Shown: piece after piece, positions 1 to 4,163 of the stretch
How positions within the stretch are numbered: the first letter of the stretch is position 1
Layout: every line of letters starts with the position of its first letter
Assembly: GCA_048882485.1 (NCBI GenBank)
Contig: JBHLRP010000024.1
Coordinates: forward strand, 13,929-48,372
DNA length: 34,444 nucleotides
DNA from: Candidatus Thorarchaeota archaeon
GTDB taxonomy: Archaea; Asgardarchaeota; Thorarchaeia; Thorarchaeales; Thorarchaeaceae
Direction: 5' to 3'
Program-made: the position numbers and the translations under genes
Notes under the pieces: generated by a model
Seen by the model: the letters and a program-made list of their open reading frames with translations, nothing else
What the model was told of the DNA's origin: nothing
Database searches by the model: none

Positions 1-69
1 ACTGTTAACGCTACTATGAAGCGGATTCGGATTGATGAGTCTACAGTCAGATGAGGCACTTCTCATCAT

Positions 70-321
70 TCAAAATGCCCGAATCTGACCCGATTCGATA
101 ACGTCTATGGGAACCCCTTCAATCTCCCTTGGGATGAGCTCATGTGCTTTTAGATCTTCAATTGGTTTCTTCCGTACTACATAGCAGATAATGCAAAGCT
201 CGTCAGTCTTCTCTCCATCAACGTATCTGTAGCCGATCGCTAAGGCCACTACGCCAGACTTCTCCATCAGCTCTGCTTCATATGCTGCCTTGACCCGCTT
301 CACTTCTTCCATTGTTACCAT
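70..321 (-). CDS. Stand-alone paralog of the N-terminal domain of the adjacent NAL1-like protease (83 aa)
   Basis: Aligns without gaps to residues 1-83 of ORF 331..1356 (32/83 identical by hand count; AYEA, VV...IGY, DLK, IPREIE, DV.E.G..RA). Starts 9 nt after the protease stop, with a GAGGT RBS overlapping that stop. Confidence 0.85.
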   Translation of the reverse strand: MVTMEEVKRVKAAYEAELMEKSGVVALAIGYRYVDGEKTDELCIICYVVRKKPIEDLKAHELIPREIEGVPIDVIESGQIRAF

Positions 322-330
322 TGAGCAACC

Positions 331-1356
331 TCACTCTGTGACCAATTCAGCATCCAGCTGATCCAGATAGGTCTGTATTGGATTTGCAATGGTGATGTTC
401 TGCACATCACTGCCTGCGAAGAGCTTTCCCACAGCAAACCAATCTTCATCGAGGATTAGACTTCCAGAATCACCACCTGTACTGAAGCCCTCTTTGCTTA
501 TGATTATCTGGTCACTGAAATACGCAAATTTCCCACCATAACCAACGGGACCTACCGTAGCATCTATACCGGTCACCACTCCGTCAACCGTATGGCATGA
601 TGTCCGCCCCGACTTCTGAACAGACATGTCTAGCTGGGCCTCCTTGACACCCTTTGGGACGCCAATGCCCACGATGTTTGGTGAAACATCGTTCTCAGCC
701 ACTTCAATCAGGGCTCCATCTACTTGATTGTATGCAGGTTGTGCGACAATTGGACTCAGCCTAGTCATTCTTCCGAACGCTCTCGCAGGAACATTATAGA
801 TTCCACTCCAGAATCTGGCGGCTGGGCAATCACTCTGGTCTGGGGTGAAGCTAATTGGAACGAATCTCAAGAGATGCCCTATTGTGTCGTCTTGCACTGT
901 GCCTCCATCATATGGAGCGGGCTGGAGATAGGGGTCTCCAATCTGTGCATCATTCGAGTTTGCTCCAACGTGGTTGTTGGTGCCTATGCAAATCTTCCCG
1001 GTACTCTTGTCCCTAAGTAGCTCCCCGTTCGTGCCAGCAGTCACCAAATAGTGTCCTCCTGACGTTCCCATTGGACAGGGTCTATGTCGGGCCTTCTTGT
1101 CTACCTGCAATGCCCTGAGTTTCCCGACCTCAAGCACATCAGTCATTTCATTTTCAATCTCACGGGGTATGATGTCCCGCGTCTTCAAGTCCTGCTCTTT
1201 GATTTTCTTCTCCACCAACAATACAATGCTCAACTTGCGTGTATTGTCACCTGCTGTGAATTTGTATCCAATCATCACTCCAACGACATTGGCTATCCTC
1301 AACAGTCGCGCTTCATACGCCTTCCTTATTTCGTGTATTCTCATCTTGCTCAACAA
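331..1356 (-). CDS. NAL1-like trypsin-fold (S1/PA clan) serine protease with N-terminal accessory domain
   Basis: Catalytic triad motifs TNNHV (His), VDGAL (Asp) and GGDSGS (Ser); family motifs TAGT.G, QP..DGG and VQKSGRTS. TTG start; no signal peptide evident. Confidence 0.85.
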   Translation of the reverse strand: MLSKMRIHEIRKAYEARLLRIANVVGVMIGYKFTAGDNTRKLSIVLLVEKKIKEQDLKTRDIIPREIENEMTDVLEVGKLRALQVDKKARHRPCPMGTSGGHYLVTAGTNGELLRDKSTGKICIGTNNHVGANSNDAQIGDPYLQPAPYDGGTVQDDTIGHLLRFVPISFTPDQSDCPAARFWSGIYNVPARAFGRMTRLSPIVAQPAYNQVDGALIEVAENDVSPNIVGIGVPKGVKEAQLDMSVQKSGRTSCHTVDGVVTGIDATVGPVGYGGKFAYFSDQIIISKEGFSTGGDSGSLILDEDWFAVGKLFAGSDVQNITIANPIQTYLDQLDAELVTE

Positions 1357-1667: not shown

Positions 1668-1973
1668 TCATGTATGGGACATGTGTTTCATTTCTTCAGA
1701 ACTTCTTTTTGCAGAAGAGGCTGCCCTTTCGCCCTTCGATTCCATCTCATATGTGATCCAGCTATCAATCGAAGACTCATGACCTCTTGATTTGAGCTGA
1801 GAGTGCACAAAATCCCGAATTGCCACGGTTTCCAAAATCTTGTCTGAACGATCGGACAACGAACGTGCGATACTCCGCGCATCTTCATAGGGAGCGCCGG
1901 ATTTCACAATGCTGACAACCACCTTCTCTGGCATGAATGCCTCAAGTGTGTCATCACGTTTTCTTACCTGCAT
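1668..1973 (-). CDS. Stand-alone ATP-cone domain protein (~101 aa)
   Basis: MQVRKRDDTLEAFMPEKVVVSIVKSG matches the ATP-cone consensus V.KRDG..E.F...KI..SI..AG. AAGGAG RBS precedes ATG 1973, so the start was moved from 2012. Confidence 0.8.
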   Translation of the reverse strand: MQVRKRDDTLEAFMPEKVVVSIVKSGAPYEDARSIARSLSDRSDKILETVAIRDFVHSQLKSRGHESSIDSWITYEMESKGERAASSAKRSSEEMKHMSHT

Positions 1974-2204
1974 TAGATACTCCTTCCTTACTGGAATGCA
2001 CTCGCATTCCATATAATATTCATTTGATTAGTTTAATAAAATCTATGGTGCGCGCAAAATGAGAGCCAGTTCGATAATCTCCCGGCCCCGCATAAGCTGT
2101 TGGCGCCGTCTTCAATCTCAACGTCGCAGAATAGTTTCGATTTGTGTCGATTTCATCATGATGCTTATTAGATAGCTATGTGGTCCGGGGATTGAGGGTA
2201 GAAT

Positions 2205-4163
2205 TTGAGAGGCAGGTTAATTCCAATCATCATGCTAATTGTATGCTTGTCACTTCCCACTGTACTCCCACCAAGTTCTCCAGTGAATAAACCAATAGAG
2301 GTAGAGGCTGCGCACACGATTGCAGAGGCTGATGTGGATCCGATGTTTCCTGATGTTGACCTGTATCAGGCGCCCCAGTATGGAATAGCTGGTGAATCTG
2401 GTGAGTTCTCATACTTCCATTCGGCATTCTATGATGATGACCAGGGTGTTTCCATGATGATGTGGAACCACACCGCTAACACTACCCTTACCTCGGATGA
2501 CGGCGTCTATTTCGAGAAGATGTTCGATTGGCCTCACGATGAGTATCCCCGGAGCATGCATCTTTCCTTTGAGTTTGCCTTTGAGTTCATTGGCGATTTT
2601 ATCTATTCATCAACCATGAGGAGATACGGAACCTTGAGGTTCTACCTCATAACTCCTGCAGGAGAAGCTCACATCATTGGATATTATTGGCCCCCCTCTG
2701 GATATTATTATCAAACGTATACGATTGATTGCCAGCCAAATATCGGCACGATTTGGTATGAGGTTCTGAATGACGATTCTCCCGACCGCAACACTACCTT
2801 TACTCTACGAGCAGGTCTGTTTCCTGGGACTGATTTCTTCCAGGGTACTGCTGGTTCTGAAGCTTGGAGAATATACTCCGGGTCAATGACGCTCTTCATG
2901 AAGAGTCTTGATTTGCTATTGACAAAAGGCACTCCTGAGGATTCAGAAGAAGTCGCGAGTCCTATATGGGAGGGGCATTGGGTTACTTCTCCTCAGAACA
3001 AGGAGGACTATCCACCGATTCTCACCCATGGCATCAGCGACTGGTCCAAAGGACTTGCGGTTCTTGATGATGGATCACTTGTATCGCTAATCCACTCACA
3101 TTATGATGATGAGGAGTACGGGTTTGAAGACATGGTGCTTCTTCACTGGGATACATTTGCAAACCTGTTATGGTACAGAAGAGTTGACAATTGTGAGCCA
3201 GAAGCTATCACGAGCGATGGGGAATATATCTATGTGACAGGGAGTAAGGATAACGCTGCATTCCTGTCGAAGTGGTCTGCAAATGGCGATGTCATCTGGG
3301 GAGAGATCTGGGATACAGACCTAGCGAACCGTGGTACATGCCTGGCTGTTGACACTGAGGGGTCTATCTATATTCACCTGAGAAAACGAAACGCGACTTC
3401 AGGGTATTACATTGACAATCATTTAGTCAAGGTGGATGCGAATGGCGATACGGTCTGGTACAAATTCCTGAATCAGACCTCGTATGCTGGCATTTATACT
3501 GGAAATAGCACATCATTCTTCACCTTTGAGAGTGTTAGTCGCACTCTCAAGGAGTGGGATGATCAGGGCAACCATCTGTCAACTATAGAGAAAGTGGACT
3601 TTGCCAGAGTCGATTTAGAGAGCCTCATAGTGCTTAGAAGACTAGGATTCAGCGACGTCAACTACCCAAACCAACATTGGACCAAAATCAACCTGAATCG
3701 GATAGAATTCGATGGAACTACAGTCTGGTCCAAGAACATCTCAATTGAGTATTTTCCGGACTACAAAGAGAATATCGTTATCAGAGAAGTGGAAATTGCT
3801 CCAGACGGATCCATACTTATCCTGCTTTTCCTTGACCGTTATGCAGAGGAGTACAGACTTTACCACTTCTTGGCTAATGGTACATTTGACTGGTACAGAG
3901 TTGTTGGATGGCAGCCACTCCGAGGTGTTTGGGACTCTTATCAGATGGAGGCTGGAAGCAATGGCCTTGTGTATCTCTATGCTTTAGAGTTTGAAACTTA
4001 TGGCAACTACTTGGGGGATTTGGTGACGAGAATCGAGGCGTACAACTATACCAATTATACACCTCCATTGATTCTGCCCCAGCATCAACCCTACATCCTT
4101 ATTGGAGCTGGAGTAATAGGATTACTAACGTTCGTGCTTGTCATCCGACGGAAACGAAATTGA
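2205..4163 (+). CDS. Secreted, C-terminally membrane-anchored protein with beta-propeller-like repeats
   Basis: N-terminal hydrophobic signal; repeats such as IYVTG...LSKWSANGDVIW and LAVDTEGSIYI...LVKVDANGDTVW; many N-x-S/T sequons; C-terminal TM followed by RRKRN. Confidence 0.7.
   Translation: MRGRLIPIIMLIVCLSLPTVLPPSSPVNKPIEVEAAHTIAEADVDPMFPDVDLYQAPQYGIAGESGEFSYFHSAFYDDDQGVSMMMWNHTANTTLTSDDGVYFEKMFDWPHDEYPRSMHLSFEFAFEFIGDFIYSSTMRRYGTLRFYLITPAGEAHIIGYYWPPSGYYYQTYTIDCQPNIGTIWYEVLNDDSPDRNTTFTLRAGLFPGTDFFQGTAGSEAWRIYSGSMTLFMKSLDLLLTKGTPEDSEEVASPIWEGHWVTSPQNKEDYPPILTHGISDWSKGLAVLDDGSLVSLIHSHYDDEEYGFEDMVLLHWDTFANLLWYRRVDNCEPEAITSDGEYIYVTGSKDNAAFLSKWSANGDVIWGEIWDTDLANRGTCLAVDTEGSIYIHLRKRNATSGYYIDNHLVKVDANGDTVWYKFLNQTSYAGIYTGNSTSFFTFESVSRTLKEWDDQGNHLSTIEKVDFARVDLESLIVLRRLGFSDVNYPNQHWTKINLNRIEFDGTTVWSKNISIEYFPDYKENIVIREVEIAPDGSILILLFLDRYAEEYRLYHFLANGTFDWYRVVGWQPLRGVWDSYQMEAGSNGLVYLYALEFETYGNYLGDLVTRIEAYNYTNYTPPLILPQHQPYILIGAGVIGLLTFVLVIRRKRN

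Follow-up and report, generated by a model that had tools for sequence, protein, structure and literature searches.

A NAL1-like serine protease and a small protein related to its N-terminal domain are encoded side by side in a Thorarchaeota archaeon and are predicted to form a propeptide-like complex

Results

The gene pair and its junction

The DNA analysed in this study, referred to as the window, is a stretch of 34,444 nucleotides from a Candidatus Thorarchaeota archaeon (GenBank assembly GCA_048882485.1, contig JBHLRP010000024.1, positions 13,929 to 48,372). Close to its first letter, two adjacent genes on the minus strand encode a serine protease resembling rice NARROW LEAF 1 (NAL1) and, downstream of it, a small protein that we call S (Table 1). 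The junction was read directly on the minus strand and carries a Shine-Dalgarno-like GAGGT 6 nt ahead of the ATG of S; the close coupling that the first-pass annotation had described for this pair was thereby confirmed. The same order, protease then S, was found in same-genus relatives, with spacers of ~3 to 9 nt and intact frames. The protease has a Met at residue 5, also conserved in relatives, at which translation may actually begin instead of at the TTG.

BLASTP gave an ungapped alignment of residues 1-83 of S with the same residues of the protease (31/83 identical, E 3e-19). When the TTG is counted as Met the identity is 32/83, as given in the first-pass annotation. The terminus of S (...GQIRAF) aligns with ...GKLRAL of the protease, where the protease runs on into its linker, and S therefore ends exactly where the N-terminal domain (N-domain) of the protease ends, again as previously noted.

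Table 1. Coordinates of the protease/S pair in the window and of genes encoding fusions of the same domains at other loci (ABD, ATP-binding domain).
Feature	Position	Strand	Remarks
Small gene S	70..321	-	83 aa; stop codon 70-72; ATG 319-321
Protease gene	331..1356	-	341 aa; TTG start; stop TGA 331-333
Gene junction	322..333	-	protease TGA 331-333; 9-nt spacer 322-330; GAGGT 328-332
Protease cis N-domain, NAL1_N/ABD-type	1108..1356	-	residues 1-83; terminal GKLRAL
Protease linker QVDKKARH	1084..1107	-	residues 84-91; N-domain tail to catalytic domain
Protease catalytic domain, chymotrypsin-fold	334..1083	-	residues 92-341
Catalytic triad codons	His129 970-972; Asp213 718-720; Ser297 466-468	-	codons verified in sequence
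Fusion genes	L040:1073-2359; L041:2957-4255; L070:2004-3299; L077:2960-4249; L090:2960-4249; L079:2537-4252		protein P0024 likewise

The protease belongs to the NAL1-like group

On inspection, neither the protease nor S has a hydrophobic N-terminal signal sequence, both opening with the amphipathic helix of the domain, and the protease is presumably cytoplasmic. In Pfam, the protease N-domain scored 22.9 bits with NAL1_N (PF25608; cut-off 27), a Trypsin_2 match on the protease was weak and below its cut-off, and NCBIfam returned no family for the protease or S. A search with profile A3, an alignment of 41 proteases, returned rice NAL1 first (E 1.8e-15), followed by streptogrisins and alpha-lytic protease (1e-7 to 1e-2). 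His129, Asp213 and Ser297 are invariant in these 41 aligned sequences. The AlphaFold model of the protease (predicted local distance difference test, pLDDT, 85.7; predicted template modelling score, pTM, 0.83) was superposed in full length, residues 1-341, on NAL1 residues 90-446 with Z 28.8 and a root-mean-square deviation (rmsd) of 3.5 Å over 294 residues. From residue 92 onwards the model matched complete mature alpha-lytic and streptogrisin proteases (Z ~23, rmsd 1.9 Å, 183 residues), and the long C-terminal beta-hairpin of the catalytic domain, which includes residues 262-274, is also present in those enzymes. Judged from its sequence, the 341-residue protein is a signal-less chymotrypsin-fold serine protease of the NAL1-like group with an intact triad.

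The N-domain and the catalytic domain are joined by a region of low model confidence (residues 80-85, pLDDT <50 in the monomer model). In alignment A3 this linker follows the family motif RA[LF]-Q-x3-5-[DK][RK]-[WH]-R-P, and after the tail motif shared with S the proteases continue with Q-x3-5-[DK][RK]-[WH]-R-P-x-P-G-G. An insert in the first barrel (residues 171-210, window ~727-846) has a predicted helix at 178-193, a conserved Cys177 and pLDDT 58-67; it is without counterpart in alpha-lytic protease and may correspond to the extra element of the NAL1 hexamer contacts.

Rice NAL1 (PDB 7Y77, 8PME, 8PMG, 8PMM, 8HAS) has the same two-domain core, in which an ABD-type domain precedes a chymotrypsin-fold protease domain that bears a His-Asp-Ser triad. 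It differs in having an additional N-terminal region (aa 1-88), which makes the hexamer and is absent from the archaeal protease, and a C-terminal extension, while the archaeal protease stays below the cut-off of the Pfam family Nal1_C (PF25819; 11.7 vs 26.1 bits). The tail of the NAL1 domain, YYGAPAQ, has lost the G-x-I-R-A-[LF] motif, and no separate small partner has been reported for NAL1.

S is a maintained gene and probably an old paralogue of the N-domain

S scored 32.5 bits with NAL1_N, above the 27-bit cut-off, and profile A1, a broad alignment of small proteins, matched NAL1 residues 113-169 (E 4e-6). The model of S (mean pLDDT 89.8) contains a helix (residues 4-19), three strands (24-34, 37-48 and 70-76) and a flexible C-terminal tail (77-83, ESGQIRAF), and it was superposed on NAL1 residues 90-175 with Z 7.4 and rmsd 1.6 Å over 80 residues. 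Residues 81-83 have a mean pLDDT of 55 when S is modelled alone, and this low confidence would fit a tail that becomes ordered upon binding. In a fold search of 48,161 chains, performed without Foldseek, the ten best matches of S included 2pro_A, the alpha-lytic pro region, as a weak match (Z 4.4, rmsd 3.0 Å, 66 residues) and 4hlb_A, a 'prodomain-like protein' (Z 3.6, rmsd 4.0 Å over 68 residues). The latter is DESPIG_01740 of Desulfovibrio piger, a structural genomics target (PDB 4HLB) that resembles S in being a small stand-alone 'alpha-lytic protease prodomain-like protein' with a 95-residue chain; its fold match to S is weak, and the entry title reports no function.

Eighteen close relatives of S were found in the protein database (83-87 aa, 61-92% identity), two of them labelled Thorarchaeota. 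In Thorarchaeota relatives the orthologues are intact at 83 aa, share 61-98% identity and end at the same residue; in one genome (G011) the gene looks truncated, but this is due to runs of N and the gene itself is not broken. The ratio of nonsynonymous to synonymous substitutions (dN/dS), calculated pairwise by the Nei-Gojobori method for nine orthologues, was 0.04-0.20 in pairs with unsaturated dS. S is thus a maintained gene under purifying selection. The first-pass annotation had argued that S is not a fresh duplication fragment, and the intact orthologues and the dN/dS values bear this out; where it had asked whether S is absent or disrupted in relatives, the full-length orthologues answer the question. 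The possibility of a pseudogene or read-through remnant was ruled out by the constant length, the common end residue and the same dN/dS values.

In a wider set of free S proteins, the chain ends 0-3 residues past the conserved motif D-V-x-E-x-G-x-[IL]-R-A-[LF]. The last residue is variable (L, F, Q, H or N), and in some S proteins the chain is longer by 1-3 residues or more.

The origin of S was examined on a tree that comprised 60 S domains and the N-domains of 58 proteases. Only 3 changes were needed to explain the S and protease labels, compared with a mean of ~40 after shuffling, which indicates that S and protease N-domains are distinct, old types in bacteria. In the best tree, the 18 rows of the Thorarchaeota family, S and protease N-domains alike, fall into a single group (support 88, which is not decisive), and a tree with all S together was not rejected by the approximately unbiased (AU) test (p = 0.33). 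When scored with models built from bacteria only, Thorarchaeota S proteins were 10-20 bits higher on the S model, and for the protease N-domains the protease model was favoured by 3-8 bits in 8/9 cases. The S protein of the window probably belongs to the old S type, and a lineage-specific duplication or homogenisation of the archaeal pair is possible. S is probably a long-lived stand-alone paralogue of the protease N-domain, not simply a copy of the protease's own domain. The earlier description of S as a free copy of that domain thus holds as regards homology and probably not as regards simple copying, since the bacteria-only models type S and the N-domain apart.

Distribution, linkage and fusions

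A HMMER scan with S gave 1,927 matches at E ≤0.001 among 1.84 billion cluster representatives. Domain scanning of the best 150 matches showed 87 proteins with the N-domain only (41 of them ≤100 aa) and 48 with the N-domain and a catalytic domain, the remainder being two-N-domain or fused proteins. For gene context, 80 bacterial loci were sampled via A2, a sub-alignment of bacterial S proteins, and this query biases the sample toward Chloroflexota; the loci come almost entirely from Chloroflexota, the exceptions being a few from Syntrophales and Thermodesulfobacteriota and one from an alphaproteobacterial metagenome-assembled genome (MAG). S precedes the protease in 37 loci and follows it in 15, and the two are fused in 6. 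The 52 adjacent pairs lie on the same strand with spacing mostly within ~100 bp, so that 58/80 loci are linked or fused, and the adjacency across prokaryotes that the first-pass annotation had suggested looking for by profile search was found in either order.

S-type genes with no protease inside 4 kb occur notably in Thermoflexus MAGs (L033, L035, L037, L049, L054, L057, L064, L080); in Thermoflexus, the gene for the partner may lie at another site, or S may have a different function.

The fusion proteins are mostly of ~430 aa (one of 572 aa) and consist of a protease N-domain, a catalytic domain and an S-type domain. A layout of two N-domains followed by the catalytic domain had been considered for the ~430-aa proteins and was rejected after rescoring gave the above order. 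Most fusions still terminate within a few residues of a ...RA[LQ]-type tail. P0026 (416 aa) shows the opposite order, with S-type, protease-type and catalytic domains in succession. The fusion protein P0024 scored 19.2 bits with Nal1_C (cut-off 26.1).

The domain is present in 27/400 Asgard genomes, belonging to several families, usually as a frame of ~80-90 aa beside a frame of ~340-550 aa; the order is reversed at least once. The two-gene arrangement is therefore not archaea-specific; it is frequent in Chloroflexota and has a scattered distribution among Asgard genomes. The genome of the window contains a third, weak NAL1_N-like stretch (G000:C34:26179-26385, plus strand; E 3e-10 with profile A1), located near the N-terminus of a ~600-aa frame (L021:1411-3174) in which no Pfam family was detected in the 588 residues scanned; this frame may encode a larger protease or another protein using the same N-domain.

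Predicted complex of S and the protease

The whole protease and S were modelled as a 1:1 complex, each with its own supplied alignment, together with three controls. The complex score was 0.89, and the best of the three controls scored 0.00. The mark used for this score is reached by 58/80 solved complexes and by 2/110 mismatched pairs, a calibration that is only rough here since our own alignments were supplied. Three prediction runs shared at least 89% of contacts, and the pLDDT of the partner was at least 88.

Confident contacts on the protease involve residues 127, 129 (His), 134, 206, 213 (Asp), 242-243, 262-274, 283, 285, 292-297, 312-318 and 320-323, of which 292-297 is the G-G-D-S stretch including the catalytic Ser297 and 312-318 is the substrate-binding strand. 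The protease's own N-domain contributes no interface residue. On S, the interface is formed by residues 8, 11, 15-16, 19, 25-31, 38, 45, 47 and 76-83. The Gly-rich strand V-V-A-L-A-I-G (25-31) of S is predicted to pair with the C-terminal hairpin of the protease, and the tail E-S-G-Q-I-R-A-F to lie along the substrate cleft, against the catalytic triad. The prediction supports a propeptide-like, active-site-directed mode of binding of S to the protease. Conservation is enriched at the protease interface (p = 0.0016), which is trivial since the active site is included.

These results also bear on the question of whether S has any functional tie to the protease. S could be a persisting leftover of a partial duplication, or could act on another target; about 17 of the 80 bacterial S-type genes have no NAL1-like protease inside 4 kb, and the grouping of Thorarchaeota S with protease N-domains in the best tree, taken alone, could suggest a lineage-specific duplication. 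Purifying selection on S, the constancy of its length and tail across bacteria and archaea, the linkage or fusion at most bacterial loci, the high complex score against zero for the controls, and the placement of Thorarchaeota S in the S type by the bacteria-only models all speak against such an unconnected protein, and we consider it very unlikely.

Neighbouring genes

The convergent gene at window 1-54 (plus strand, stop at 52-54) ends 15 bp from the stop of S and encodes a 325-aa LD-carboxypeptidase with the N- and C-terminal domains of Peptidase_S66; it extends upstream in the loci L004 and L005 (L005:505-1479). For an Asgard archaeon, a peptidase family acting on murein peptides is a mildly surprising find.

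On the other side, ~310 bp upstream of the protease, lies a gene for a stand-alone ATP-cone protein of 114 aa (window 1668-2012, minus strand; PF03477, 32.1 bits). This gene adjoins the protease/S pair in same-genus genomes. It was considered as part of the module and set aside: its homologue is on a different contig from the pair in two same-family genomes and was not found in three others, and the gene is probably outside the protease/S module. A further gene (window 2205-4163, plus strand) encodes a 652-aa protein with many Trp, Tyr and Asp residues and hydrophobic segments at both termini, for which Pfam gave no family at E ≤0.01.

Discussion

We propose that S may be a trans-acting, pro-domain-like cap or inhibitor of the protease, possibly also a folding or assembly factor, and we regard this proposal as about evenly balanced between right and wrong. 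S would bind the catalytic domain as the alpha-lytic pro region binds its enzyme. The Gly-rich edge strand of S (25-31) would extend the C-terminal beta-hairpin of the protease (262-274), and the C-terminal tail of S (76-83, ...G-x-I-R-A-F) would occupy the substrate cleft against the triad. The active site would thus be capped, and the protease would stay latent until S is displaced or degraded. S might possibly also template folding, or compete with the N-domain of a neighbouring subunit during oligomer assembly. Here binding and its mode are predicted from the model, and from these we infer inhibition and latency. The first-pass annotation had read S as an inhibitor or propeptide mimic; the predicted active-site-directed binding agrees with this, while the domain itself corresponds to the ABD of NAL1, which builds the NAL1 trimer and is not known as a propeptide.

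Several observations weigh against this proposal. The fold scores of S with the alpha-lytic pro region are below Z 5, which is too low to establish common ancestry or to set the match apart from a common fold arrangement, and 40 S-type proteins compared with Pfam at E up to 10 matched NAL1_N and scattered chance families and no alpha-lytic prodomain family. No fixed P1 register is evident, given the variable end of S, and the S-type tail is not free in one type of fusion. A NAL1-like protease was missing inside 4 kb from 17-20 of the 80 bacterial S loci, about a fifth. The S positions at the interface are not significantly more conserved than other S positions (p = 0.10), and the complex score may reflect memorised structures of alpha-lytic protease with its pro region or of NAL1 trimers. 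In addition, the homologous domain of NAL1 stays attached, binds ATP, builds the active trimer and hexamer and is not reported to be inhibitory.

The last point leads to a different reading, in which S would be a structural, non-inhibitory subunit of a NAL1-like hetero-oligomeric cage needed for activity, replacing or adding to the ABD of the neighbouring subunit and possibly stabilised by a nucleotide. In rice NAL1, residues 89-172 are named the ABD and build the trimer (PMC12012508). The ABD binds ATP-Mg without hydrolysing it, and holds the trimer by contacting the protease domain of the neighbouring subunit (PMC12012508). The residues that bind ATP-Mg are R120, R122, K123, K139, D166 and V167 (PMC12012508). 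In our alignment, K51, D73 and V74 are the counterparts of K139, D166 and V167 and show little or no variation, whether in S proteins or in protease N-domains; the equivalent of R120 is a conserved R/K32. Nucleotide binding by S or by the protease N-domain is possible on this alignment. The contacts between ABD and protease domain across subunits and the requirement of oligomerisation for activity in NAL1 also favour a structural role, as does the monomer model of the archaeal protease, which keeps the domain arrangement of the NAL1 monomer; fusions in both orders would fit a permanent subunit. Against it, the predicted interface takes in the complete catalytic triad together with strand 312-318, which binds substrate; such coverage is unexpected for a purely structural role. 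Moreover, two of the four phosphate-binding basic residues of NAL1 (R122 and K123) are replaced in this pair, by V34/D35 in S and by T34/A35 in the protease. We consider the structural subunit the main contender to the cap, though a less probable one.

The alpha-lytic pro region acts in trans as both foldase and inhibitor. Its complex with the protease is mirrored by the predicted mode of S, with sheet extension at the hairpin and a tail in the active site. In the alpha-lytic complex the pro-protease junction lies across the active site, and the pro region and C-terminal hairpin together form a five-stranded sheet whose interface is needed for foldase activity; this hairpin was described as unique to kinetically stable bacterial proteases (PMC2829044; structures PDB 2PRO and 4PRO, Sauter et al. 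1998 as cited therein). The catalytic domains of the alpha-lytic/streptogrisin enzymes (S1E) superpose on that of the archaeal protease, and the C-terminal hairpin is common to them. These enzymes differ in being secreted pre-pro-enzymes that lose their pro region by cleavage; the archaeal proteins lack a signal peptide, the pro-like protein is the product of a separate gene, and the cis N-domain may stay attached. S might serve chiefly as a trans-acting foldase for a kinetically trapped catalytic domain and be released or degraded afterwards. After NAL1, the nearest relatives of the catalytic domain are indeed the kinetically stable alpha-lytic/streptogrisin proteases, and the predicted contacts of S at the hairpin and active site coincide with those on which foldase activity of the pro region is reported to depend critically (PMC2829044). 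However, the conserved strand and tail are already present in the protease's own N-domain, which would seem to make a second foldase superfluous; at the sequence level no connection to the alpha-lytic prodomain family was found, and extreme kinetic stability would be less obviously needed in the cytoplasm. For these reasons a mainly foldase function appears quite improbable to us.

A bolder conjecture would join these systems: the 'ATP-binding domain' of NAL1 and the free S would both descend from an alpha-lytic-type pro region, and the prokaryotic S would be a nucleotide-responsive plug of the active site and of the neighbour docking site, whose release switches a capped monomer to an active oligomer. 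We think this unlikely, although worth stating. If true, it would represent an unrecognised, widespread protease/antiprotease switch in bacteria and Asgard archaea and, in fused form, in plants.

Stand-alone propeptide-like inhibitors are familiar from other protease clans, as in MEROPS families I9 (yeast proteinase B inhibitor 2 and Pleurotus POIA1, acting on subtilases) and I29 (CTLA-2, acting on papain-like proteases). In these a free protein homologous to the propeptide of a protease inhibits that protease in trans, and for S the likeness is one of concept only. They have other folds, act on other protease clans, and are not known to share an operon with a protease retaining its own copy. 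We know of no stand-alone propeptide-type partner for chymotrypsin-fold (S1) proteases. In the literature on bacterial homologues of NAL1 and on NAL1 structures, we found no account of a NAL1-like protease in prokaryotes that is accompanied by a free N-domain protein. A free propeptide-type protein has precedents in principle; its occurrence with chymotrypsin-fold proteases, and in an operon whose protease has retained a copy, seems to be undescribed. The first-pass annotation knew of no such arrangement in archaea, and this stands in that no published description was found; the arrangement is not special to archaea, being common in Chloroflexota. The window adds an Asgard case, together with the distribution in Asgard genomes, the fusion architecture and a specific predicted binding mode that parallels alpha-lytic protease.

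Chymotrypsin-fold proteases in the cytoplasm endanger their own cell, and to our knowledge the prokaryotic control of such proteases is mostly unknown beyond HtrA and the Lon/Clp systems. If S acts as proposed, a dedicated partner resembling the N-domain and conserved in groups ranging from Chloroflexota to Asgard archaea would provide a simple means of control in wide use, and it would be the first known stand-alone propeptide-type partner in the S1 clan. We know of no account of the ancestry of the 'ATP-binding domain' of rice NAL1, the product of a crop-yield gene, and the prokaryotic pair points to a possible origin of this domain as a pro-domain-like module docking on a protease domain. 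The prokaryotic pair consists of small, tractable proteins in which the control of activity by such docking could be studied.

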